Source: a virus | Taxonomy: Duplodnaviria > Heunggongvirae > Uroviricota > Caudoviricetes | Length of the DNA: 13,956 nucleotides | IMG/VR virus record: IMGVR_UViG_2671181040_000015 | Direction: 5' to 3' (one strand) | Part shown: positions 1 through 13,956 of the stretch, in pieces | How the letters are laid out: each line of letters starts with the position of its first letter | Numbering within the stretch: position 1 is the stretch's first letter | Made by a program: the position numbers and the translations under genes | Notes under the pieces: generated by a model | What the model saw: only the letters and a program-made list of their open reading frames with translations | The model's database searches: none | Told to the model about the DNA's origin: nothing

Positions 1-570
1 ACAATGCTTAATGCGCTGGCAGGTAAACAACCGCTGGACAATACGCTTACCAATTTGAGTGGAAAGGATGTAGCTGGTCTTCTCGCATACCTTGGTTTGG
101 GAGAAGGCTCTGCATTGCCTGTTGGTGTGCCTGTTCCGTGGCCTTCAGCCACTCCGCCAACAGGCTGGCTGAAATGCAATGGTGCGGCTTTTTCTGCTGA
201 AGAATACCCGGAACTGGCAAAGGCTTACCCGACAAATAAATTGCCTGATTTACGCGGTGAATTTATTCGCGGCTGGGATGACGGGCGCGGGGTTGATGTT
301 GGGCGTGCAATCTTATCATCGCAGGGCGATGCCATCAGAAATATAATTGGCAAGTTTGGTAATACTCAATTGTACCCAAGTATCTATTGTGATGGTGCAT
401 TTGGCGTCACTGTTGAGAATGTGTCACAAACTTTAGGATTAACTCTTGCGCCTTCAGGGGCAGGTAATGGGACTGTAAACTTTAGCTTTGATGCATCTAA
501 AATCGTTCCTGTTGCCACTGAAAACCGGCCGCGCAACGTCGCATTTAACTTCATTGTGAGGGCTGCATAA
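1..570 (+). CDS. Tail-fibre protein, 3' portion (5' partial, continues upstream of the window); 1..105 is the end of the constant shaft (Sc), 106..570 the variable receptor-binding C-terminus (Sv1)
   Basis: The frame is open from base 1 (ORF track 4..570) with stop TAA at 568-570. The C-terminal domain (PVGVPVPWPSATPPTGWLKCNGAAF...RGEFIRGWDDGRGVD) resembles Mu S / P2 H / e14 Stf-type fibre tips. Crossover site A lies inside the coding sequence. Confidence 0.9.
   Translation, partial: TMLNALAGKQPLDNTLTNLSGKDVAGLLAYLGLGEGSALPVGVPVPWPSATPPTGWLKCNGAAFSAEEYPELAKAYPTNKLPDLRGEFIRGWDDGRGVDVGRAILSSQGDAIRNIIGKFGNTQLYPSIYCDGAFGVTVENVSQTLGLTLAPSGAGNGTVNFSFDASKIVPVATENRPRNVAFNFIVRAA
80..105 (+). other. 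Crossover site A (gix/hix/cix-like 26-bp invertase site): TTCTCGCATACC-TT-GGTTTGGGAGAA
   Basis: Two imperfect 12-bp inverted half-sites around a 2-bp TT core. The half-site form TTCTCnnAAACC resembles remembered hixL/gixL half-sites. Sequence identity with copies B and C ends exactly at the inner edge of the site (position 105/106). Confidence 0.75.
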
Positions 571-1172
571 TGGCACAGGCAAAATTAAACAGCGAACTGA
601 TTGCCACGGTAGCGGGTGATGTGACCGTGTTTAACTACGACAGCAAGACGCGGGAATATCTTTCCACATCAACTGAATATCTTGCTGTTGGCGTCGGTAT
701 CCCGGCATGTTCTTGTTTAGATGCACCAGGTATACATAAAGCTGGTTATGCAATCTGCCGTTCAGCAGATTTAAACTCATGGGAGTATGTGCCAGACCAT
801 CGCGGTGAAATCATCTATAACACCGAAACGGGAGACGCCAAAGAAATCACAACTCCGGGTGATTACCCTGAAAATACAACCACTATCGCCCCGTTAACGC
901 CATTCGATAAATGGGATGGTGAGAAATGGGTGACCGATACTGAGGCACAGCATTGCGCCGCAGTAGACGCGGCAGAAGCACAGCGTCAGTCACTGATTGA
1001 TACTGCAATGGCTTCCATCAGTCTGATTCAACTGAAATTGCAGGCCGGGCGGAAGCTGACGCAGGCAGAAACCACCCGACTTAACGCTGTGCTGGATTAC
1101 ATTGACGCGGTGACGGCAACAGATACCAGCACCGCGCCGGATGTCATCTGGCCTGAACTGCCGGAGGCGTAG
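570..1172 (+). CDS. Tail-fibre assembly chaperone Tfa1 (partner of Sv1)
   Basis: 200-aa ORF whose ATG overlaps the fibre stop (TAATG at 568-572). Its C-terminus (LDYIDAVTATDTSTAPDVIWPELPEA) shares the motif seen in the convergent Tfa2 (LDYLDALELVDTSGAPDIEWP), and it sits in the position of Mu U / P2 G. Confidence 0.85.
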   Translation: MAQAKLNSELIATVAGDVTVFNYDSKTREYLSTSTEYLAVGVGIPACSCLDAPGIHKAGYAICRSADLNSWEYVPDHRGEIIYNTETGDAKEITTPGDYPENTTTIAPLTPFDKWDGEKWVTDTEAQHCAAVDAAEAQRQSLIDTAMASISLIQLKLQAGRKLTQAETTRLNAVLDYIDAVTATDTSTAPDVIWPELPEA

Positions 1173-1584
1173 GCCATTCAATATCTGGCGCACCGGAAGT
1201 ATCGACCAGTTCCAGTGCGTCCAGGTAATCCAGCCACAAATTATATTGCGCCAGTTCGTCACCTTTCAGACGACCAATAGCCGCTTTACCAGGCCATTGT
1301 TTACTGTTCATATAATCGTTGGCCTGATTAATCAATTGCTGCTTCTCCAGTTCGGCTGCAGCAATTTGTTCCTCATGTGTTGGTGGTGGAATTTCGGACC
1401 ATGCAGGAAAACCATTTTCTCCAGCGATACGGATTTTTCCTTTCGGCGGTAATCCGGAAAACTCAATATACACTTGCTCATCAACTTCAACAGCATCATC
1501 TGGCCATGAGTCAGCTTGAGTGTAATCCTCTTTCATCTCCAGCGGATAGAAAGAGTTTGTAGTCGCGGAATATATGTAATTCAT
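1144..1584 (-). CDS. Alternative tail-fibre assembly chaperone Tfa2 (partner of Sv2)
   Basis: 146-aa ORF convergent with Tfa1, with 3' ends overlapping by 29 bp (1144-1172). It shares the Tfa-like C-terminal motif and lies 21 bp downstream of Sv2 on the minus strand, with a GGAG Shine-Dalgarno (rc of 1589-1594). Confidence 0.8.
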   Translation of the reverse strand: MNYIYSATTNSFYPLEMKEDYTQADSWPDDAVEVDEQVYIEFSGLPPKGKIRIAGENGFPAWSEIPPPTHEEQIAAAELEKQQLINQANDYMNSKQWPGKAAIGRLKGDELAQYNLWLDYLDALELVDTSGAPDIEWPTPPAVQAR

Positions 1585-1958
1585 TTTTCACTCCATATAG
1601 CTAAATTAACAGCCTAACGCTAAAAATGAAGCGCCGAGGCCAGGAGTACTGGCTCTGGATATAAATTTAACCGGGTCGGGACTAAAACCTGCACAGGCAA
1701 TATAACCAACAGCCCCGCTATCTGGTGTGTAGTCTTGTGAGACCAAAACACGCAGACATCTGTTTGGAAATGCAATCGGGAAATGGGTTACTACATCCTG
1801 TGCAATGCCTGGTGCGCCGATTGAGCCCCACTGAAGAATAAAACCTGATGGTAATTTTTGATATCCAGTACCTGAAACAGAAAGCGTGAAGCTACCCATA
1901 TCAGGTATCTGATTCGCCCCTGTCCCTACATTCCTTTTAGCCGCTTCTCCCAAACCAA
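1408..1958. repeat. Direct repeat copy 1 (551 bp): tfa2 5' end (59 codons), intergenic spacer, Sv2 cassette and inner half of site B
   Basis: Matches 2632..3182 at a constant offset of 1224 bp; spot checks and the identical encoded peptides show no mismatch. Identity ends at 1407/2631 and at 1959/3183. Confidence 0.9.
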
Positions 1959-2808
1959 GGTATGCGAGAAGACCAGCTACATCCTTTCCACTCAAATTGG
2001 TAAGCGTATTGTCCAGCGGTTGTTTACCTGCCAGCGCATTAAGCATTGTCGTGGCAAAGTTCGGATCATTCCCCAGTGCCGCCGCCAGTTCGTTCAGTGT
2101 ATCCAGTGCAGCAGGTGCAGAACCCACCATTCCTGCAATCGCCGATTTCACAAAAGCCGTAGTGGCAATCTGTGTATTGTTGACCGACTGCGCCGCCGTG
2201 GGGGCTGTTGGCGTTCCGGTGAGTGCCGGACTCGACAACGGTGCTTTTAGTGCCAGCGCATTGTTAATGGTGGTACTGAAATTCGGATCATTGTTAATGG
2301 CTGCGGCTATTTCTTTCAGCGTGTCCAGCGTGGCTGGCGCACCATTAATAAGGGCCGTCAGTGCCGCCTGTACAAACGCAGTGGTCGCAACCTGCGTGGT
2401 ATTATTCCCCGCCGCTGGCGTTGGCGCTTTGGGGGTTCCGGTAAATGTCGGGCTGGCTTTTGGCGCGTACTGTGAATGCGGGTCCGGTGCGGCAAGATGT
2501 TTTGCCATCTGATCATCCGCGTACACCTTCAGCTCCAGTGCCTTGTCATCCACATACTTGCGGGTTGCCAGCACTACAGCAGGGTCGATTTTCAGGGTGA
2601 TATTGTCCGTGCTGCTGGTAATCAGCACCAAAAAACCATTTTCTCCAGCGATACGGATTTTTCCTTTCGGCGGTAATCCGGAAAACTCAATATACACTTG
2701 CTCATCAACTTCAACAGCATCATCTGGCCATGAGTCAGCTTGAGTGTAATCCTCTTTCATCTCCAGCGGATAGAAAGAGTTTGTAGTCGCGGAATATATG
2801 TAATTCAT
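1606..2808 (-). CDS. Chimeric 400-aa ORF: Tfa2 N-terminus (59 aa, 2808..2632), inverted tail-fibre shaft segment (about 225 aa, 2631..1971), site B, and Sv2 receptor-binding tip (1944..1606)
   Basis: Continuous ORF in the track. The N-terminal 59 aa are identical to Tfa2. The middle carries fibre-shaft repeats ([10 protein letters not shown]...LDTL.E.AAA...NDPNF). The last 35 codons before site B are identical to window positions 1..105. The C-terminus AAKRNVGTG...LALGC is a distinct fibre tip. Whether it is expressed as such is uncertain. Confidence 0.55.
1945..1970 (-). other. Crossover site B (identical to site A, inverted orientation)
   Basis: The reverse complement of 1945..1970 is TTCTCGCATACC-TT-GGTTTGGGAGAA, with the core at 1957-1958. 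Confidence 0.75.
1945..2049 (-). repeat. Inverted repeat of window positions 1..105 (end of the tail-fibre constant region, including the crossover site); it probably extends further as 2050..2631 pairs with sequence upstream of the window
   Basis: The reverse complement of 1945..2049 equals 1..105 (position p pairs with 2050-p). The identity reaches the window edge, so its true length cannot be determined here. Confidence 0.9.
2034..2495 (-). repeat. Two in-frame tandem repeat units of 231 bp (77 codons) within the inverted fibre-shaft segment
   Basis: The motif GCGCATT..AAATTCGGATCATT recurs at 2034 and 2265. The encoded peptide units are [42 protein letters not shown] and [42 protein letters not shown]. 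Confidence 0.7.
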
Positions 2809-3182
2809 TTTTCACTCCATATAGCTAAATTAACAGCCTAACGCTAAAAATGAAGCGCCGAGGCCAGGAGTACTGGCTCTGGATATAAATTTAACCGGGT
2901 CGGGACTAAAACCTGCACAGGCAATATAACCAACAGCCCCGCTATCTGGTGTGTAGTCTTGTGAGACCAAAACACGCAGACATCTGTTTGGAAATGCAAT
3001 CGGGAAATGGGTTACTACATCCTGTGCAATGCCTGGTGCGCCGATTGAGCCCCACTGAAGAATAAAACCTGATGGTAATTTTTGATATCCAGTACCTGAA
3101 ACAGAAAGCGTGAAGCTACCCATATCAGGTATCTGATTCGCCCCTGTCCCTACATTCCTTTTAGCCGCTTCTCCCAAACCAA
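2632..3182. repeat. Direct repeat copy 2 (551 bp), a duplicate of 1408..1958
   Basis: Constant offset of 1224 bp from copy 1. Contains a second tfa2 start with RBS (ATG rc at 2806-2808) and a second Sv2 cassette ending at site C. Confidence 0.9.
2830..3168 (-). other. Duplicate Sv2 cassette (promoterless fibre-tip segment adjacent to site C); it would become the fibre C-terminus after inversion between sites A and C
   Basis: Encodes AAKRNVGTG...LALGC, identical to the tip encoded at 1944..1606, with stop (rc) at 2830-2832. The ATG of the 130-aa track ORF (3222) lies outside the repeat and is probably fortuitous. Confidence 0.7.
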
Positions 3183-3194
3183 CGTTTATGAAAA
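3169..3194 (-). other. Crossover site C: reverse complement TTTTCATAAACG-TT-GGTTTGGGAGAA
   Basis: The inner half-site and core are identical to A and B. The outer half-site differs (TTTTCATAAACG) but keeps the hix-like form. It lies 55 bp upstream of the invertase start, as gix/cix sites lie beside gin/cin. Confidence 0.7.
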
Positions 3195-3249
3195 TGCAGA
3201 GATAATGGCTAACTGGCATCATCCCCGGTTTTTATTCAGGGGATTGATC
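3195..3249 (+). promoter_or_regulatory. Candidate invertase promoter and RBS region abutting site C
   Basis: GATAAT (3201-3206) is a possible -10 and AGGGGA (3238-3243) a Shine-Dalgarno 6 nt before the ATG. No convincing -35 was found, so the promoter call is weak. Confidence 0.3.
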
Positions 3250-3816
3250 ATGCTTATTGGCTATGTACGCGTGTCAACAAATGACCAGAACACCGATTTG
3301 CAACGTAATGCACTGAACTGCGCGGGATGTGAGCGGATTTTTGAGGATAAAATCAGTGGCACTAAGTCCGACAGACCGGGGCTTAAAAAACTGCTCAGGA
3401 CACTATCGGCAGGAGACACTCTGGTTGTCTGGAAGCTGGACAGACTGGGGCGCAGTATGCGGCATCTTGTTACGCTGATAGAAGAGTTGCGCCAGCGTGG
3501 CGTGAATTTCCGAAGCCTGACTGACAGTATTGATACCAGTACCCCAATGGGCCGTTTCTTTTTTCATGTTATGGGTGCCCTGGCTGAAATGGAACGCGAA
3601 CTGATAGTTGAACGTACCAGGGCAGGGCTGGCTGCAGCTCGTGCCAAAGGCAGAGTAGGTGGACGCCGTCCTAAGTTGACCACCGAACAGTGGGCACAGA
3701 TTGGGCGTTTACTTGAGGCCGGAGAATCAAGACAGCGTATTGCACTGATTTTTGATGTAGGCGTTTCTACTATTTATAGAAAATTTCCGGCAAATAAGAG
3801 CAATGAATCTCCCTGA
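3250..3816 (+). CDS. Serine DNA invertase of the Hin/Gin/Cin/Pin family
   Basis: 188 aa from the ATG at 3250 (the track ORF starts earlier at 3205). N-terminus MLIGYVRVSTNDQNTDLQRNAL carries the catalytic serine motif of resolvase/invertase enzymes, with a C-terminal helix-turn-helix region (GESRQRIALIFDVGVSTIYRK). It lies immediately beside an invertible fibre segment. Confidence 0.9.
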   Translation: MLIGYVRVSTNDQNTDLQRNALNCAGCERIFEDKISGTKSDRPGLKKLLRTLSAGDTLVVWKLDRLGRSMRHLVTLIEELRQRGVNFRSLTDSIDTSTPMGRFFFHVMGALAEMERELIVERTRAGLAAARAKGRVGGRRPKLTTEQWAQIGRLLEAGESRQRIALIFDVGVSTIYRKFPANKSNESP

Positions 3817-3864
3817 ATCAGCATTATTTTGATTATCCCTGCAAGCAGACAAATACCGTCATTT

Positions 3865-3882
3865 TGTGTGAATAACGGTACA
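3865..3882 (+). promoter_or_regulatory. P2-type late promoter activator site (TGT-N12-ACA dyad) for the FI operon (PF-like)
   Basis: TGT (3865-3867), 12 nt, ACA (3880-3882), centred about 85 bp upstream of the FI ATG. This is the spacing expected for the Ogr-dependent dyad centred near -55 with a leader of about 30 nt. Confidence 0.55.
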
Positions 3883-3958
3883 ACTGCGCTTAGCTGTTTG
3901 TCAGGCACAATCACTTCAACATAGGGCGAAGCCTAATCCAATCAGGAGGTTCGCCACT

Positions 3959-5131
3959 ATGGCTCAGGATTACCACCACGGGGTGCGCGTTGTTGAAGTC
4001 AACGAAGGCACCCGATCCATTACCACGGTGAGCACCGCCATCGTGGGTATGATCTGCACGGGCGATGATGCCGATGCAAAAATGTTTCCTCTTAATAAAC
4101 CCGTGCTGATCACTGATGTGCTGACTGCCAGCGGTAAAGCGGGTGAGTCCGGTACTCTGGCCCGTTCGCTGGATGCCATCGCTGACCAGGCAAAACCCGT
4201 GACCGTTGTTGTGCGTGTGCCGCAGGGTGAAACGGAAGACGAAACCACGACCAATATCATCGGCGCTGTGACTGCTGAAGGTAAAAAAACAGGCATGAAA
4301 GCCCTGCTATCTGCCCAGTCACAGCTCGGCGTTAAACCGCGCATTCTCGGCGTGCCAGGTCACGATAACAAAGCCGTTGCGACTGAGTTGCTGAGCGTGG
4401 CGCAAAGCCTGCGTGGGTTTGCTTACCTGTCAGCGTATGGCTGCAAGACGGTACAGGAGGCGATCACTTACCGTGAAAACTTCAGCCAGCGCGAAGGAAT
4501 GCTGATCTGGCCCGACTTTACTGGCTGGGATACGGTGTTGAATGCCGAAGCAACGGCATATGCCACCGCCCGTGCGCTTGGTCTGCGCGCCAAAATTGAT
4601 GAGCAGACCGGGTGGCACAAAAGCCTGTCCAACGTGGGCGTGAACGGTGTCACCGGAATTTCTGCAGATGTGTTCTGGGATCTGCAGGACCCGGCAACCG
4701 ATGCGGGACTGCTTAACCAGAACGACGTCACCACGCTTATCCGCAAAGACGGTTTCCGCTTCTGGGGTTCCCGCTGCCTGAGTGATGACCCGCTCTTTGC
4801 CTTCGAAAACTACACCCGCACGGCGCAGGTACTGATGGACACGATGGCAGAAGCGCATATGTGGGCGGTGGACAAACCGCTGAACCCGTCGCTGGCCCGC
4901 GACATTATCGAAGGTATCCGCGCCAAAATGCGCAGCCTGGTCAGTCAGGGGTATCTCATTGGTGGTGATTGCTGGCTGGACGAGTCGGTGAACGACAAAG
5001 ACACGCTGAAAGCCGGAAAACTCACCATCGACTATGACTACACGCCAGTGCCGCCACTTGAAAATCTGATGCTGCGTCAGCGCATCACCGATCAGTACCT
5101 GGTGAATTTTGCCAGCCAGGTCAGCGCGTAA
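3959..5131 (+). CDS. FI: Contractile tail sheath protein (P2 FI homologue)
   Basis: 390 aa, AGGAGG Shine-Dalgarno at 3944-3949. The sequence ([31 protein letters not shown]...) is close to the remembered P2 FI sequence. Confidence 0.9.
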
Positions 5132-5140
5132 GGGGACAAC

Positions 5141-5656
5141 ATGGCTTTACCACGCAAATTAAAACATCTGAACCTGTTTAACGACGGGAACAACTGGCAG
5201 GGGATCGTAGAGTCTTTGACGCTGCCGAAATTCACCCGCAAATATGAGAAGTATCGCGGCGGCGGAATGCCGGGTGCAGTGGATGTGGATCTGGGGCTTG
5301 ATGACAGTGCTCTGGACACAGAATTTTCCATTGGTGGTACTGAACTGCTGCTGTTTAAACAGATGGGCAAAGCCACGGTGGATGGCATCCAGTTGCGCTT
5401 TACCGGCTCTATCCAGCGTGATGATACCGGGGAAGTGCAGGCCGTGGAGCTTGTGGTACGTGGACGTCACAAAGAAGTGGATTCCGGCGAGTGGAAGACG
5501 GGCGAAAGCAACACCACCAAAGTGACCAGTACCAACAGCTACGCGAAGCTGACCATCAATGGTGAGGTGCTCTATGAAGTGGACCTCATCAACATGGTGG
5601 AAATCGTGGACGGTGTGGACCTGATGGAAGCACACCGTAACGCCCTCGGCCTCTGA
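5141..5656 (+). CDS. FII: Tail tube protein (P2 FII homologue)
   Basis: 171 aa, immediately downstream of the sheath gene, with the size and position of P2 FII. Confidence 0.85.
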   Translation: MALPRKLKHLNLFNDGNNWQGIVESLTLPKFTRKYEKYRGGGMPGAVDVDLGLDDSALDTEFSIGGTELLLFKQMGKATVDGIQLRFTGSIQRDDTGEVQAVELVVRGRHKEVDSGEWKTGESNTTKVTSTNSYAKLTINGEVLYEVDLINMVEIVDGVDLMEAHRNALGL

Positions 5657-5667
5657 TGTATCTGAAC

Positions 5668-5685
5668 GGCGCGGAATACCGCGCC
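5668..5685 (+). other. GC-rich hairpin between FII and E (GGCGCGG-AATA-CCGCGCC), with no U-tract
   Basis: Perfect 7-bp stem with a tetraloop, 12 nt after the FII stop. It may be an RNA stability or attenuation element separating highly expressed sheath/tube genes from E-T-U-D. Confidence 0.4.
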
Positions 5686-5710
5686 AGAACCTAATTTACA
5701 GGACAGCAAA

Positions 5711-6013
5711 ATGAGCGATAAGCAGACTGAAAAGACCATTCAACTGGATACCCCTATCAAGCGTGGTAAAACAGAAATCACCGAAATTGTGCTGCGCAAA
5801 CCGCAGTCCGGTGCGCTGCGCGGTACACGCCTGCAGGCGATTATGGATATGGATGTGAACGCGATGATGATCGTGATCCCCCGCATCTCCAGCCCGGCAC
5901 TGACTGCACAGGAAATTGCAGAGATGGACCCGGCAGATCTCACTGCTATGTCGGTTGAGGTTGTCACTTTTTTGTTGAAGAAGTCGGTGCTTGCCGGTTT
6001 ACCGACAGCCTGA
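5711..6013 (+). CDS. E: Tail assembly chaperone E (P2 gpE homologue)
   Basis: 100-aa ORF between the tube and tape-measure genes. It contains the T6G slippery heptamer near its 3' end. Confidence 0.8.
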   Translation: MSDKQTEKTIQLDTPIKRGKTEITEIVLRKPQSGALRGTRLQAIMDMDVNAMMIVIPRISSPALTAQEIAEMDPADLTAMSVEVVTFLLKKSVLAGLPTA

Positions 6014-6147
6014 CGGTTGACGATCTGGTGGCAGATATCGCCACCATTTTTCACTGGCCGCCATCCGTTACTGACGTTATGCCGCTGACCGAAGTGCTGG
6101 AATGGCGGTATAAAGCGATTCAGAGAAGCGGGGCCAACGATGAGTGA
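5711..6147 (+). CDS. E+E' fusion product made by a programmed -1 ribosomal frameshift at 5968-5974
   Basis: The heptamer T_TTT_TTG is in the X_XXY_YYZ register of the E frame. The -1 frame stays open from 5974 to TGA at 6145-6147 and overlaps the T start at 6140, as in P2 E/E'. Confidence 0.65.
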
Positions 6148-9100
6148 TAATAACCTGCGCCTGCAGGTCATTCTTAATGCGGTTGACAAACTCACCCGCC
6201 CATTCCGTGCTGCACAGGCCAGTTCGAAAGAGCTGGCTGGCGCAATCAGAAACTCCCGTGACGCATTAAAGCAACTCAATCAGGCGGGTAACAGCCTGGA
6301 AAAATTTCGCAAGCTGCAGGCCGATAACAAGAAGTTAGGCGACAGGCTGAACTATGCCAGACAGAAGGCTAATTTGCTTAGCTCTGAGCTGGAGGCGATG
6401 GAACAACCATCACAACGGCACCTTGTGGCTTTAGGTCGGCAAACGCTGGCAGTCCAACGCCTGGAAGAACAACAAAAATATTTGCAGAAGCAAACGGCGC
6501 TTGTGCGTGCAGAACTGTACCGGGCGGGAATTTCTGCGAAAGATGATGCGGGAGCAACTGCCCGTTTAGCCCGTGAAACATCACGTTATAACCAGGAATT
6601 GTCGAAACAGGAGGCGCGCCTGAAGCGACTGGGGGAAGCTCAGCGCAGGATGAATGCGGCGCGTGCCAGTTATGCCCGTTCGCTGGAGGTGCGCGATCGT
6701 ATTGCAGGAGCCGGAGCCACCACCACGGCTGCAGGGCTGGCAATGGGTGCGCCAGTGATGGCGGCAGTAAAAAGCTATACCAGCATGGAAGATGCCATGA
6801 AAGGTGTGGCAAAGCAGGTCAATGGTCTGCGTGACGATAATGGCAACCGCACTGCACGTTTTTATGAAATGCAGGATGCCATCAAGGCTGCCAGCGAACA
6901 GTTGCCGATGGAAAACGGTGCGGTGGACTTCGCTGCACTGGTTGAAGGTGGGGCGCGCATGAACGTCGCAAACCCTGACGACAGCTGGGAAGACCAGAAA
7001 CGTGACCTGCTGGCCTTCGCCAGCACGGCAGCAAAGGCGGCAACAGCCTTTGAGTTGCCAGCGGATGAACTGTCAGAAAGTCTGGGGAAAATCGCCCAGC
7101 TCTACAAAATCCCTACCCGCAATATTGAACAGCTCGGCGATGCGCTGAACTATCTGGATGATAACGCCATGTCGAAAGGGGCAGACATCATTGATGTGAT
7201 GCAACGTCTGGGCGGTGTGGCTGACCGTCTGGATTATCGTAAAGCGGCGGCGCTGGGTTCCACCTTCCTGACACTGGGCGCTGCGCCAGAGGTTGCAGCC
7301 AGTGCAGCAAACGCGATGGTGCGTGAATTGTCCATTGCCACCATGCAAAGCAAGAGTTTCTTTGAAGGAATGAATCTGCTGAAACTCAATCCTGAGGTGA
7401 TTGAAAAGCAGATGACGAAGGATGCGATGGGAACCATCCAGCGCGTGCTGGAGAAGGTGAACGCACTGCCGCAGGATAAGCGCCTGTCTGCCATGACCAT
7501 GTTGTTTGGTAAAGAGTTTGGCGATGATGCGGCGAAACTGGCAAACAACTTGCCGGAACTGCAGCGCCAGCTAAAACTGACAGCGGGCAATGATGCGCTC
7601 GGTTCGATGCAGAAAGAATCCGACATTAACAAGGACTCACTTTCTGCGCAGTGGTTGCTGGTTAAAACCGGAGCGCAGAACACCTTCAGCAGCCTGGGCG
7701 AAACGCTGCGCCAGCCGCTGATGGATATTCTGTACACGGTGAAAAGCATCACGGGGGCGTTGCGCCGCTGGGTGGAAGCTAACCCGGAACTGACAGGCAC
7801 ACTGGTGAAAGTAGCGGCTGTTGTGGCTGCGGTTACCGTAGGCCTCGGCACCTTAGCGGTGGCGTTGGCTGCAGTGCTGGGGCCGCTGGCAGTGATCCGT
7901 CTGGGATTCTCTGTGCTGGGTATCAAAACGTTACCTTCCGTTACGGCAGCAGTAACACGAACCAGCAGCGCGTTGTCCTGGCTGGCGCACCACTTGCACT
8001 GCTGCGACGCGGGCTTGCTTCAACGGGCAGCGCAGCGGGTTTACTTACTGCGCCGTTGTCGTCTTTGCGCCGCACGGCATCACTGACGGGAAATGTCCTG
8101 AAAACTGTAGCAGGTGCGCCGGTTGCACTTTTGCGGTCTGGATTATCCGGTTTACGTGCTGTTGCTGTGATGTTTATGAATCCACTGGCAGCACTACGCG
8201 GCGGGCTGACTGCCGCAGGCGCGGTGCTACGAGTACTGGCATCCGGTCCGCTGGTGATGCTGCGCGTTGCCCTGTATGCCGTGTCTGGTCTGTTAGGTGC
8301 TCTGCTCAGTCCGATAGGTCTTGTGGTTACTGCACTGGCGGGTGTGGCGCTGGTTGTCTGGAAATACTGGCAACCCATCACCGCGTTTCTCGGTGGTGTG
8401 GTGGAGGGATTCAAAGCAGCGGCAGGTCCCGTCAGTGCCGCGTTCGAACCACTTAAGCCTGTGTTCCAGTGGATTGGCGATAAAGTGCAGGCGTTGTGGG
8501 GCTGGTTTACTGATCTGCTGACACCCGTTAAGTCGACTTCTGCCGAACTGCAGAGCGCAGCGGAAATGGGGCGACGATTCGGGGAGGCGTTGGCGGAAGG
8601 GCTGAATATGGTTATGCATCCGCTGGACTCCCTCAAATCCGGCGTATCCTGGTTGCTGGAGAAACTCGGCGTTGTCAGTAAAGAGGCCGCAAAGGCGAAA
8701 CTACCGGAAAGTGTGACGCGTCAGCAACCTGGGACGGTGAATACAGACGGTAAAGTGATGATGCCATCGGGTGGTTTTCCGTCATGGGGATATGGCTTTG
8801 CGGGGATGTATGACAGCGGCGGCTATATCCCGCGCGGGCAGTTTGGCATCGTCGGTGAAAACGGGCCGGAAATTGTTAACGGCCCGGCAAATGTGACCAG
8901 CCGGAGAAATACAGCTGCACTGGCTGCCGTTGTTGCCGGAATGATGGGCGTTGCTGCCGCGCCAGCAGAGCTTCCACCGTTGCACCCTTTGGCACTTCCC
9001 GCGAAAGGCGGCGAAGCGATGGTGAGTCGTGCAGCCACTGTGCCGCCCGTTCACCGGATTGAGGCACCGACGCAGATCATCATTCAGACGCAGCCAGGAC

Positions 9101-9213
9101 AAAGTGCGCAGGATATTGCGCGGGAGGTGGCACGCCAGCTTGATGAACGTGAACGCAGGCTGAAGGCAAAAGCCAGGAGTAACTACAGCGATCAGGGGGG
9201 ATACGACGCATGA
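6140..9213 (+). CDS. T: Tail tape measure protein (P2 T homologue), reading frame interrupted: the track shows two overlapping ORFs, 6140..8086 and 8056..9213, that need a -1 shift to join
   Basis: Both ORFs look like tape-measure sequence (coiled-coil and Ala/Leu-rich hydrophobic stretches). The last 30 residues of the first ORF and the first 50 residues of the second frame are low-complexity junk, which places the break roughly between 7950 and 8000. Confidence 0.75.
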
Positions 9214-9695
9214 TGATGGTGCTGGGATTGTACGTGTTTATGCTGCGCACCGTTCCGTATCAGGAACTGCAGTATCAACGCAGCTGGCGACATGCGTCAA
9301 ACAGCCGGGTAAACCGTCGTCCGTCCACGCAGTTTCTGGGACCGGACAACGACATGCTGACGCTTTCCGGTGTTCTTATGCCGGAGATAACAGGCGGCAG
9401 GCTGTCGTTGCTGGCACTGGAGCAGATGGCAGAACAGGGGAAAGCATGGCCCCTGATTGAAGGTAGCGGCACGATTTACGGCATGTTTGTGATTGAGGGA
9501 CTGAATCAGACTAAAACGGAGTTTTTCCGCAACGGTATGCCGCGCAGGATTGAGTTCACCCTGTCGCTAAAACGGGTGGATGAATCCCTGTCCGATATGT
9601 TCGGTGATCTCAGTACTCAACTGAATAATCTGCAGGACACGGCAACGTCTGCCTTAAGCGATATCAGTAAAACGGTGGGAGGGCTGCTGTCGTGA
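9210..9695 (+). CDS. U: Tail protein U (P2 gpU homologue)
   Basis: 161 aa; its ATG overlaps the T stop; size and position match P2 U. Confidence 0.8.
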   Translation: MMMVLGLYVFMLRTVPYQELQYQRSWRHASNSRVNRRPSTQFLGPDNDMLTLSGVLMPEITGGRLSLLALEQMAEQGKAWPLIEGSGTIYGMFVIEGLNQTKTEFFRNGMPRRIEFTLSLKRVDESLSDMFGDLSTQLNNLQDTATSALSDISKTVGGLLS

Positions 9696-10792
9696 ATTTC
9701 AGCTCTGAACTGCTTAACAAAGGCAACAAAACTCCGGCATTCAGCATCAGTATTGAAGGCAGGGATATAACCACTGTGCTGGACAACCGCCTGATGGGGC
9801 TTACGCTGACGGATAACCGGGGCTTTGAAGCGGACCAGCTTGATCTGGAGCTGGACGACGCTGACGGAAAAATCGTGCTGCCGCGCCGTGGTGCAGTCAT
9901 TACGCTGGCGCTGGGCTGGAAGGGGCAGCCGCTTTTCCCGAAAGGGGCATTCACGGTGGACGAGATTGAACACACTGGCGCACCGGACCGCCTGACTATC
10001 CGGGCGCGAAGTGCTGATTTTCGGGAAACCCTGAATACCCGCCGTGAAAAATCGTGGCACAAGACCACAGTTGGGGAAGTGGTGAAGGAAATAGCCGCGC
10101 GGCACAAGCTGAAGATGGCACTGGGTAAAGACCTGTCGGATAAGCCCGTGGAGCATATAGACCAGACTAATGAGAGTGACGGCAGTTTTCTGATGCGGCT
10201 GGCGCGCCAGTACGGTGCTATTGCATCGGTGAAAAATGGCAATCTGTTATTCATCCGGCAGGGTCAGGGTAAAAGCGCCAGCGGTAAACCACTGCCGGTG
10301 ATCACTATCACACGTAAGGACGGCGACAGTCACCGCTTTACCCTGGCAGATCGCGGAGCTTACACGGGCGTAATTGCCAGCTGGTTGCATACCCGCGAAC
10401 CCGCGAAGAAAGAAAGCACTACGGTGAAGCGTAAGCGCAGGACTAAGAAGCAGAAGAAAGAGCCGGAAGCGAAGCAGGGCGATTACCTGGTGGGGACGGA
10501 TGAAAACGTGCTGGTACTTAATCGCACCTATGCTAATCGGAGTAACGCCGAACGGGCAGCGAAAATGCAGTGGGAACGCCTGCAACGCGGCGTTGCGTCA
10601 TTCTCGCTACAACTGGCGGAAGGGCGGGCAGATCTCTACACGGAAATGCCAGTGAAAGTCAGTGGCTTTAAACAGCCGATAGATGATGCGGAATGGAGCA
10701 TTACGACTCTGACGCATACCGTCAGCCCGGATAACGGTTTTACGACCAGTCTGGAGCTTGAAGTGAGGATTGATGATTTCGAAATGGAATGA
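9692..10792 (+). CDS. D: Tail protein D (P2 gpD homologue)
   Basis: 366 aa, GTG start overlapping the U stop, last gene of the tail operon before ogr. Confidence 0.8.
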   Translation: MNFSSELLNKGNKTPAFSISIEGRDITTVLDNRLMGLTLTDNRGFEADQLDLELDDADGKIVLPRRGAVITLALGWKGQPLFPKGAFTVDEIEHTGAPDRLTIRARSADFRETLNTRREKSWHKTTVGEVVKEIAARHKLKMALGKDLSDKPVEHIDQTNESDGSFLMRLARQYGAIASVKNGNLLFIRQGQGKSASGKPLPVITITRKDGDSHRFTLADRGAYTGVIASWLHTREPAKKESTTVKRKRRTKKQKKEPEAKQGDYLVGTDENVLVLNRTYANRSNAERAAKMQWERLQRGVASFSLQLAEGRADLYTEMPVKVSGFKQPIDDAEWSITTLTHTVSPDNGFTTSLELEVRIDDFEME

Positions 10793-10882
10793 TTCTTCGC
10801 AATGGAGAACTTTTAAGTTTGCAAAATGGAATAATGCGGTATCATTATTGTGAATTTAGCAAAAATGGGGAGAACTCGAAAA

Positions 10883-11101
10883 ATGATGATTTGCCCACTG
10901 TGTGGAAGTGCCGCCCATACTCGCAGCAGTTTTCAGGTATCTTCATTGACCAAAGAGCGTTACAACCAGTGCCAGAACATTAACTGCAGCCATACTTTTG
11001 TTACCCATGAAACTTTTGTTCGTTCGATTGCAACGCCAAAAGAGTCAAATCCGGTTCAGCCGCATCCAATGAAATCAGGACAGGTGGCGCTCTCTCTTTG
11101 A
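10883..11101 (+). CDS. ogr: Ogr/Delta-type zinc-finger late transcription activator
   Basis: 72 aa from the ATG at 10883: MMICPLCGSAAHTRSS...CQNINCSHTF has the Cys-X2-Cys...Cys-X4-Cys zinc finger and the Ogr length. The longer track ORF starting at 10850 is not used. Confidence 0.9.
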   Translation: MMICPLCGSAAHTRSSFQVSSLTKERYNQCQNINCSHTFVTHETFVRSIATPKESNPVQPHPMKSGQVALSL

Positions 11102-11181
11102 CGCTGTCGCCATTTTGTCGCCATCGTTAAAAAACAGTGCTTCTAACATCATGATTTTAAACAGCATAAATTTCAGGCAAC

Positions 11182-11224
11182 AAAAAACCCATCAACCTTG
11201 AACCGAAATGGCGGGGTTGATGGG
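11182..11224 (-). terminator. Rho-independent terminator on the minus strand, downstream of ybjL
   Basis: Perfect 10-bp stem (11188-11197 and 11215-11224, CCCATCAACC / GGTTGATGGG) followed on the minus strand by a run of 6 T (complement of A at 11182-11187). Confidence 0.6.
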
Positions 11225-11336
11225 CTCCACAAAATGGGGACATCAAAGAAAAGCAGTGGCACTAATTAAGACTGATGCCCTGCGGAAAAGTTCTGCGGTT
11301 GTGCAAAAAAATTTCATTTTCAGGGCAACTTCAGTT

Positions 11337-13022
11337 TTATCCTAATCCAGGCCATACCATGACGATGATTGTCCCTGCCAGCGTCAGCAGGACGTTGGCG
11401 ATTGCGTAGGTGCCCGCATAGCCCAGCGCAGGGATGTTACTGCGAGCTGTATCACTGATGATCTCCATTGCCGGCGCGCAGGTGCGTGCGCCCATCATTG
11501 CGCCGAACAACAGTGCGCGGTTCATTCGCAATACATAAGCACCGAACAAGAAACAGATAACCACGGGCACAAGACTGACAATTAATCCGGCAATCAACAT
11601 CTGACCGCCAATCGCGCCCAGGCCGTTATTAATACCGCTACCGGCGCTCAGACCAACGCCTGCCATAAACACCATCAAGCCGAACTCTTTCACCATGCTT
11701 AATGCACCTTGCGGAATGTAACCGAAGGTCGGGTGGTTAGCACGCATAAAGCCCAGCATAATTCCGGCGAATAACAACCCGGCAGCGTTCCCCATGCCGA
11801 AACTGAATGTGCTGAACTGGAAGGTGATCATCCCGATCATCAGCCCAATAACAAAGAAGGCGCAAAATGCCAGCAGGTCAGTGACCTGGCTGTGAATCGA
11901 GATAAAGCCGATGCGATCGGCGATGGTTTTTACGCGACGGGCATCACCGCTGACTTGTAAAACGTCACCTTTGTTAAGCACGACGTTGTCATCTATCGGC
12001 ATCTCAATCTGGCTACGAATGACGCGGTTAAGGAAGCAACCGTGATCGGTCAACTTCAGTTGTGCGAGACGTTTACCTACAGCGTTATGGTTTTTAACGA
12101 CCACTTCTTCAGTGACGATACGCATGTCGAGAAGGTCACGATCGAAAACTTCTTTACCGTTACGGAAGCTGGGATCGAGTCGGGCATGGGCGTCGGGATA
12201 GCCTACCAACGCTATTTCATCGCCCATTTGTAGCACGGCATCACCGTCTGGATTTGCAAGAATCCCGTTACGTCGAATACGTTCAATGTAGCAGCCGGTT
12301 TGTCGATAAATACCCAGTTCACGCAGATTTTTGCCGTCGGTCCAGGCCACGAGCTCCGGGCCGACGCGATAGGCGCGGATCACCGGTAAATAAACCTTAC
12401 GGTTGGCATCAGTGTCCAGGCCACGTTCGCGGGCGATTTGCTGGGCGCTGGTCTGTAAGTCCTGATGCTGCAATTTCGGCAAGTAACGCGCACCAACAAT
12501 CAAACTCACCAGACCGATTAAATAGGTTAAGGCATACCCGAGGCTCAGATTATCCAGTGCCAGTGAGAGCTGCCTGCTTTCCATGCCGGAATGACGCAGT
12601 GTATCGCCAGCACCGACCAGAACCGGTGTCGACGTCATAGAGCCTGCTAACATACCGGCCGTCAGGCCAATATCCCAGCCAAACAGCTTACCTAACCCTA
12701 AGGCGATCACCAGCGCACTGCCAACCATCACCAGTGCTAACATTAGGTAATTTTTCCCATCGCGAAAAAAAATGGAAAAAAAGTTCGGTCCGGCTTCGAC
12801 CCCGACGCAGAAAATAAACAGCATAAAGCCAAGATTAAGCGCATCGGTGTTAATGCTGAAATGTTGTTGGCCTAATAACAGCGATACGACTAAAACGCCA
12901 ATGGAATTACCCAGTTGGATCGAACCAAGTCGTAACTTTCCGAGACATAGCCCAAGCGCGAGGACCACAAATAATAACAGAATGTAATTCCCATTTAACA
13001 ATTCGGCGACGTTTATATTCAC
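11337..13022 (-). CDS. ybjL: Putative transporter YbjL (YidE/YbjL family, membrane domains plus RCK_C-type regulatory domains)
   Basis: 561 aa, N-terminus [39 protein letters not shown] start; followed by ybjM and grxA as in the E. coli chromosome. Confidence 0.9.
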
Positions 13023-13291
13023 GGAGGCTAACTTCTTGTTTACTAGTAAGCTGTTGAAAGAAATGGTAATTTACGATAATGTTTTTTACCAGAATTCAGG
13101 GCGCAGATTCATTCAGCGCACCTAAACGATAGTAAAGTAACAATATATTTTACTAGTGTAATCACATTAGGTATCAACGGCTATATGAATTGCGTTGGCC
13201 TATATTAGCATGGAATGCGAAGCGGCTTTATCTTACTGAACGCCACACTGGCGAAAAATGTGTTCGATAGACGCAGTGTCAGGAGGAACGA

Positions 13292-13669
13292 GTGAAACAT
13301 AAACAACGTTGGGCGGGGGCAATCTGCTGTTTTGTCCTCTTCATTGTGGTGTGCCTTTTTCTGGCGACGCACATGAAAGGCGCTTTTCGGGCTGCCGGGC
13401 ATCCTGAAATCGGCTTGCTATTTTTCATTCTTCCTGGAGCAGTCGCCAGCTTCTTTTCACAGCGTAGAGAAGTCCTGAAACCTCTGTTTGGCGCAATGCT
13501 GGCGGCACCCTGTTCGATGCTCATTATGCGGCTGTTTTTTTCACCGACGCGCTCATTCTGGCAAGAGCTGGCATGGTTACTAAGCGCGGTGTTCTGGTGT
13601 GCGCTGGGGGCACTGTGTTTCTTATTTATCAGTAGTTTGTTTAAACCACAGCACAGAAAAAATCAGTAA
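13292..13669 (+). CDS. ybjM: Inner membrane protein YbjM
   Basis: 125-aa hydrophobic ORF, GTG start with AGGAGG Shine-Dalgarno (13281-13286), divergent from ybjL and convergent with grxA. Confidence 0.8.
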   Translation: MKHKQRWAGAICCFVLFIVVCLFLATHMKGAFRAAGHPEIGLLFFILPGAVASFFSQRREVLKPLFGAMLAAPCSMLIMRLFFSPTRSFWQELAWLLSAVFWCALGALCFLFISSLFKPQHRKNQ

Positions 13670-13689
13670 AGCCCTCAACGCGAGGGCTT
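13669..13689. terminator. Hairpin between the convergent ybjM and grxA genes (AAGCCCTC-AACGC-GAGGGCTT)
   Basis: 8-bp stem with a 5-nt loop between the two stop codons (13667-13669 and 13699-13701). The U-tracts are weak on both strands. Confidence 0.4.
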
Positions 13690-13698
13690 GTCAGACGA

Positions 13699-13956
13699 TC
13701 AGGCGTCCAGATTTTCTTTCACCCATGCAGCAAAATCGGTATAGCCGCCGATATGTTGCTGATCGACAAAAATCTGCGGCACGGTTTCTACGGGTTTACC
13801 TGCCTTTTGTTGTAGATCTTCTTTAGTGATCCCTTCCGCACGAATATCTACATACTGATACTGAAAATCATCGCGTTCATTGCTCAATTTCTCAGCCAGA
13901 TCTTTTGCACGCACACAGTAAGGGCAACCCGAACGACCAAAAATAACGGTTTGCAT
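13699..13956 (-). CDS. grxA: Glutaredoxin 1
   Basis: 85 aa, MQTVIFGRSGCPYCVRAK with the CPYC active site. The gene is complete; its ATG is at the window edge (13954-13956 rc). Confidence 0.95.
   Translation of the reverse strand: MQTVIFGRSGCPYCVRAKDLAEKLSNERDDFQYQYVDIRAEGITKEDLQQKAGKPVETVPQIFVDQQHIGGYTDFAAWVKENLDA

Follow-up and report, generated by a model that had tools for sequence, protein, structure and literature searches.

A one-unit CTGG deletion splits the tape-measure gene of a P2-like Escherichia coli prophage and recurs at the same tract in other copies of the gene

We report that the tape-measure gene (T) of a P2-like prophage, contained in a 13,956-nucleotide stretch of Escherichia coli DNA (hereafter the window), is divided between two reading frames, and that the division very probably results from a real and recent 4-bp deletion in which one CTGG unit was lost from a (CTGG)3 tract by slipped-strand mispairing, so that T is now a pseudogene. 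The lesion lies at positions 7978-7985, it is absent from the relatives of the prophage, and it recurs in other copies of the gene; replication slippage is the cause that we infer for the loss of the unit.

Results and discussion

The prophage and its tail genes

The window corresponds to positions 2-13957 of CYFW01000004.1, a contig of the E. coli draft assembly GCA_001283465.1, and carries the right arm of a P2-like (Peduoviridae) prophage, the remaining left half of which is on another contig. The following features were recognised:

Left end, up to the invertase gene: genes for tail fibres, with an invertible segment
3250-3816: invertase gene
3959-5131: sheath gene
5141-5656: tube gene
5711-6013, + strand: tail assembly chaperone E (PF10109 and PF06528 matches for the E/E' pair)
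6028-6147, + strand: tail assembly chaperone E' (same matches for the pair)
6140-9213, + strand: tape-measure gene T, P2 gpT-like, 3074 nt, broken
9210-9695, + strand: gpU-like tail gene, equal in length to intact relatives
9692-10792, + strand: gpD-like tail gene, equal in length to intact relatives
10883-11101, + strand: ogr/Delta-like late-gene activator, intact as the first-pass annotation of the window had it
11337-13022, - strand: ybjL, chromosomal, adjoining the right prophage end

The start of U overlaps the stop of T (ATGA), and the chromosomal order after the right prophage end is ybjL(-), ybjM(+), grxA(-). T sits directly after E/E', which carry a slippery site, and before gpU/gpD, as it does in E. 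coli SL124, E. coli HS and Klebsiella phage 4LV2017 (Peduoviridae, Elveevirus). The latter is the closest deposited phage: the order sheath, tube, E, E', T, U, D, ogr is common to it and the window, and its gp35, annotated as 'P2 gpT-like', shows 96.9% nucleotide identity over the whole gene, but the T gene of 4LV2017 is a single 3078-nt ORF, whereas that of the window is interrupted at codon 617.

Two reading frames of one gene

The first-pass annotation had traced tape-measure coding from frame 2 (stop at 8086) into frame 1 (open from 7783), and both ORFs are indeed present, as two parts of T:

6140..8086, + strand: 5' T fragment, frame 2, 648 aa, deposited as CTY85530.1
7984..9213, + strand: 3' part of T, frame 1, native residues 617-1025, detached from the 5' part

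Codons 1-616 of the 5' fragment are native (through Ala616); after them come 32 codons read out of frame (HHLHCC...ARHH) and, at 8084-8086, a premature TGA. Frame 1 is preceded by a TAA at 7780-7782 and translates without a stop over 7783-9213, so that the two frames overlap by 304 nt (7783-8086); the ORF list contains 8056..9213 in this frame, and the gene caller chose for the 3' part a 347-aa remnant from the ATG at 8170 (CTY85547.1), in which a profile search found no Pfam or NCBIfam domain. Residues 200-567 of the 5' fragment score 314.9 bits with TIGR01760 (tape_meas_TP901; curated cut-off 28.8, E=6e-94) and residues 246-457 score 68.4 bits with PF10145 (curated cut-off 33.2), and the complete TIGR01760 domain is retained within this ORF. 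Members of the family have one continuous 1025-aa ORF, and the window gene is split at codon 617; we regard it as a predicted pseudogene of the tape-measure family and not as a functional member.

That both frames encode tape-measure sequence, as had been proposed, is borne out by relatives, since each aligns to one continuous gene of 3078 nt and 1025 aa, which is the size of the T CDS in SL124, HS and JP538. A 1001-nt query spanning the junction matched 1037 E. coli records, and among the matches listed the matching stretch was 1005 nt, that is, 4 nt above the query, under a single CDS annotated as 'phage tail tape measure protein'. Uninterrupted T genes of 3078 nt occur in more than 980 complete E. 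coli genomes (about 989 records), and T has the 3078-nt form in all 32 of the phage records that cover the gene. The two-ORF layout in related functional phages, which would have spoken for a normal arrangement, was thus looked for in these 32 phage and about 989 E. coli records, and the gene was a single ORF. A conserved two-ORF layout with a programmed frameshift in T was rejected on the grounds of these single-ORF relatives and of an overlap without a slippery site: within 7783-8086 there is neither an X XXY YYZ heptamer in the zero frame nor a homopolymer of five or more bases.

A programmed -1 frameshift does exist in the vicinity. The P2-type slippery site TTTTTTG at 5968-5974 in E/E' looks intact, lies just upstream of T and not inside it, and is the genuine programmed -1 site of the tail module, serving the E+E' chaperone. 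Programmed -1 frameshifting of tail chaperones is known from lambda (G/GT) and P2 (E/E+E') (PMC5009743), and in these systems, as in the T gene of the window, a -1 change of frame occurs in a tail module next to or within the tape-measure region. The likeness ends there: the chaperone site has a slippery heptamer and is kept in all relatives, whereas the break in T has neither property, and the two phenomena are unrelated.

One might still suppose that the break is bypassed by a -1 (or +2) ribosomal shift somewhere in 7783-8086, or that a tape measure in two pieces works, so that the prophage is functional. Tape-measure proteins tolerate internal changes, as deletion mutants of lambda gpH illustrate, and the 304-nt overlap together with the nearby use of frameshifting by P2-like phages would suit a shift. 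However, models for lambda gpH and P2 gpT hold that the tape measure must be one chain to set the length of the tail, the overlap offers no recognisable shift site, and the 32 phage records lack the two-ORF layout, as do about 99.7% of E. coli copies, and hence we consider a bypass highly improbable.

One missing CTGG unit

Alignment with relatives places the break precisely. Where the relatives read GTTGTC-CTGG-CTGG-CTGG-CGCACC, the window reads GTTGTC-CTGG-CTGG-CGCACC, and this is the sole length difference from SL124, HS and JP538:

7978..7985, + strand: (CTGG)2 remnant of an ancestral (CTGG)3, from alignment with SL124, HS and JP538

The switch had been predicted at about 7950-8000, an interval that includes these positions, and its description as a -1 frame break is fair, since the loss of 4 bp shifts the downstream coding sequence out of frame 2 and into frame 1. 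When one CTGG is re-inserted, the window yields an ORF of 3078 nt and 1025 aa without a single amino-acid difference from the protein of E. coli SL124. SL124 is the nearest relative; its T gene differs from that of the window by two substitutions and the deletion only, and over 11.3 collinear kb there are 22 mismatches and no gap other than the missing CTGG. The identity of the restored protein to that of SL124 means that the split T cannot be a chance overlap of ORFs, and this identity together with the few differences from SL124 indicates that the deletion is recent. No change other than the loss of CTGG disrupts a reading frame in the part of the prophage that is visible here.

The intact tract, CTGGCTGGCTGG, is the only tetranucleotide repeated three times in the intact T gene, and it encodes S-W-L-A-G inside a hydrophobic segment. 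The tract in the window opens with CCTGG at 7977-7981; CCWGG is the methylation site of Dcm.

Recurrence at the same tract

To place the lesion among its homologs, IMG/VR was scanned with the gapped pattern GTTGTCCTGG N{0,8} CTGGCGCACCAC, which returned 107 copies with the following alleles:

(CTGG)3, CTGGCTGGCTGG: 88 of 107 copies
Middle unit synonymously interrupted: 14 of 107 copies (TTGG in 13, TTAG in 1)
(CTGG)2: 4 of 107 copies (L037, L048, L075, L108)
(CTGG)4: 1 of 107 copies (L061)

A synonymous change in the middle unit (CTGG-TTGG-CTGG or CTGG-TTAG-CTGG) interrupts the repeat and should stabilise the gene. JP538 likewise has TTGG as its middle unit. The same pattern run against genome contigs retrieved one (CTGG)3 copy from Escherichia sp. 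(L117) and seven other matches, which were set aside as apparently due to chance, being in unrelated and mostly uncultured (MAG) lineages such as Actinomycetota and Burkholderiales.

Among complete E. coli genomes, the four bases are missing from 2 of the 771 records that matched a 76-nt junction query, namely those of K99B and F829, in both of which NCBI PGAP annotates T as 'frameshifted'. These two carry the identical lesion to that of the window, with no difference in kind; in comparison with decayed prophage pseudogenes, the lesion in the window is very recent, the CTGG-restored protein being identical to that of an intact relative. A synthetic 84-nt query for (CTGG)4 in complete E. coli genomes ranked none above the (CTGG)3 alleles. 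Unselected frequencies of length variants at the tract are hence 5 of 107 in IMG/VR and 2 of 771 in complete E. coli genomes. Taking the IMG/VR copies, the window, K99B and F829 together, the length variants at the tract number eight, of which seven are (CTGG)2 and one is (CTGG)4, and no other length variant was found.

We compared the flanks of these alleles over 1.2 kb on each side of the tract (2.4 kb in total). Any two of the seven copies with (CTGG)2, namely those of the window, K99B, F829, L037, L048, L075 and L108, are 53-101 sites apart, and the nearest neighbours of each variant carry (CTGG)3, at 0-62 differences: 1-2 for the window, 1-4 for L108, 11-14 for K99B and F829, and 0 for the (CTGG)4 copy. 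With carriers so far apart and each closest to intact copies, shared ancestry of the (CTGG)2 alleles was rejected, and the distribution implies a minimum of seven deletions that arose independently, plus one insertion. Sequencing error could account for some of the other (CTGG)2 or (CTGG)4 alleles, although two of these alleles come from finished genomes.

The tract also stands out within the gene. A multiple alignment of 88 full-length T copies contains eight small frameshift indels at the tract and two elsewhere (L097 and L011), where three of the eight belong to the window, K99B and F829, which entered the set through the CTGG lesion itself. Counting other breaks in T by stepwise ORFs gave too many, since L020, L022, L033, L071 and L079 lose homology upstream, by rearrangement or truncation. 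As the tract accounts for most small frameshifts in T, inactivation of the prophage at this gene seems to be steered by local sequence and not to be random.

These comparisons also bear on whether the isolate in truth has (CTGG)3 and an intact T, with the gap introduced by base-calling, assembly or gap-filling. The source is a draft contig with an odd left end, where a block of 554 bp is duplicated and the junction base is N, and the exact 648-aa product has been deposited from a single contig. Yet a repeat of 12 nt is far below read or k-mer length and poses no problem for assembly, a deletion that removes one whole repeat unit and nothing else is characteristic of biological slippage, and the (CTGG)2 allele is found in two finished genomes and four IMG/VR contigs of different backgrounds. 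In addition, the identical 347-aa downstream remnant is present in a second deposited assembly (CTY76186.1); further remnants that agree in length (347 aa) are on record from an NCTC genome and from Logan contigs. An artefact is therefore, in our view, unlikely. Where the choice had been left between a sequencing indel and an inactivating mutation, a single 4-bp indel is found, and both the clean loss of a unit and the recurrence in finished genomes favour mutation.

Slipped mispairing and the lacI hotspot

If slippage is the cause, the tract would have misaligned by one unit during replication, one CTGG unit of the template would have looped out, and the new strand would have been left one unit short. 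Translation now departs from the native frame after residue 616, adds 32 aberrant residues and stops at 8084-8086, and the C-terminal 409 residues are no longer attached, which makes T a pseudogene. Slippage by +4 back to (CTGG)3 could in turn restore the gene.

A tract of this unit and copy number is familiar from the laboratory. The classic hotspot of spontaneous mutation in lacI is a (CTGG)3 tract, at which slipped mispairing adds or removes one unit, and such one-unit changes are described as dominating the lacI mutation spectrum (Farabaugh et al. 1978, as related in PMC12606429 and PMC11603525). The hotspot of Farabaugh, Schmeissner, Hofer and Miller (1978) has the same unit in the same number as the T tract, CTGGCTGGCTGG, and T resembles lacI in that exactly one unit is gained or lost, with a frameshift as the outcome, independent recurrence and dominance of the small-indel spectrum of the gene. 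The two differ in that T is a prophage structural gene in natural isolates, whereas the lacI data are a selected laboratory spectrum. A prior description of a CTGG hotspot in the tape-measure genes of P2-like phages was not found in the open-access literature.

Deletions and insertions at the T tract stand at 7:1. The order ybjL(-), ybjM(+), grxA(-), followed in locus L004 by ybjC(+), nfsA(+) and rimK(+), is what we take to be the K-12 orientation, at ~0.9 Mb on the right replichore; on the basis of the gene order in the window and L004, T would be co-directional with the replication fork, provided that the K-12 orientation is kept. When lacI was placed in P. putida, the same hotspot behaviour was obtained, and deletions dominated if the gene was co-directional with the fork and insertions if it was head-on (PMC3485313). 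The excess of deletions would fit this orientation bias, with small numbers on both sides of the ratio, and could equally reflect faster reversion of (CTGG)4.

The existence of both contracted and expanded alleles may also suggest that the tract is an adaptive and reversible ON/OFF switch, a phase-variable contingency locus controlling the production of infectious particles, all the more as the tract is kept in most copies even though synonymous interruption is possible (and is found in 14 of 107). But the tract has three units only, in contrast to the longer tracts and far higher switching rates of known contingency loci; OFF alleles are rare at the frequencies given above for complete-genome records and IMG/VR contigs; the benefit to phage or host is not obvious, lysis not being prevented by the loss of T; and the tract simply encodes its five residues of the hydrophobic segment. 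An adaptive switch is hence scarcely credible, and retention of the tract as an ON/OFF control that sets prophage infectivity at a low rate of switching, which would be the stronger form of the wider hotspot proposal given in the conclusions, finds no positive support. We return to slipped-strand mispairing at a mutation-prone tract as the preferred account of the lesion.

Probable consequences for the tail and the prophage

Because a single chain spanning the tail is needed, a product without residues 617-1025 should not support normal tail assembly. The prophage would thus be expected to make neither a tail of normal length nor an infectious particle, unless +4 slippage restores (CTGG)3. Termination now falls 1.1 kb upstream of U, the start of which overlaps the stop of T, and the expression of U and D, through translational coupling, may be reduced as well.

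Decay in related prophages and the invertible segment

A 90%-identity cluster of C-terminal T fragments (P0016-P0030 shown) has 341 members of 277-698 aa, and one C-terminal fragment of 441 aa is present on 34 contigs. E. coli assemblies therefore often contain a broken T of this lineage, and some other break points in T may be recurrent too. Damage to neighbouring genes was also seen. In JP538 (L003 5197-6289) the gpD gene is annotated as frameshifted, and in F829 (L006 92-1649) the invertase and sheath genes are partial and tube, E and E' are absent, in addition to the CTGG deletion in T.

The left end of the window has a peculiarity of its own. Positions 1-1958 correspond to 1726-3683 of the SL124 locus (L001), positions 1944-2630 to L001 1145-1831 in reverse complement, a stretch that makes up the body of the tail-fibre gene, and positions 2632-13956 to L001 3133-14461. 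A direct duplicate of 554 bp results in the window (1408-1961 = 2632-3185), and the base at the junction, 2631, is N in the source contig. Positions 1-3185 look as if the invertible tail-fibre segment had been assembled twice in succession, once in each orientation, and with such an arrangement the 400-aa ORF at 1606..2808(-) is probably chimeric. Either this is an artefact of scaffolding, or the culture contained both orientations, which would imply an active invertase. The invertase switch had been taken to be intact, and this stands for the invertase gene at 3250-3816; the left 3.2 kb, however, seems to contain the segment in both orientations.

Conclusions

For annotation, 6140-9213 is to be treated as one frameshifted tape-measure pseudogene and not as two genes, in a prophage that is probably tail-defective. 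The event is of a known kind at a known hotspot motif and represents ordinary prophage decay. That a textbook laboratory hotspot motif acts alike in natural genomes is a modest point, which leaves existing understanding unchallenged. A wider proposal, to which we give little credence at present, would see in the tract nature's equivalent of the lacI hotspot, in the tape-measure gene of a widespread P2-like lineage, where it repeatedly, and in principle reversibly, knocks out tails. If this were true, the ratio of -4 to +4 alleles would provide a natural read-out of how replication slippage is biased between the leading and the lagging strand and of how fast prophages decay, a read-out made possible by the thousands of sequenced E. 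coli that carry T at a fixed chromosomal site and in a fixed orientation.
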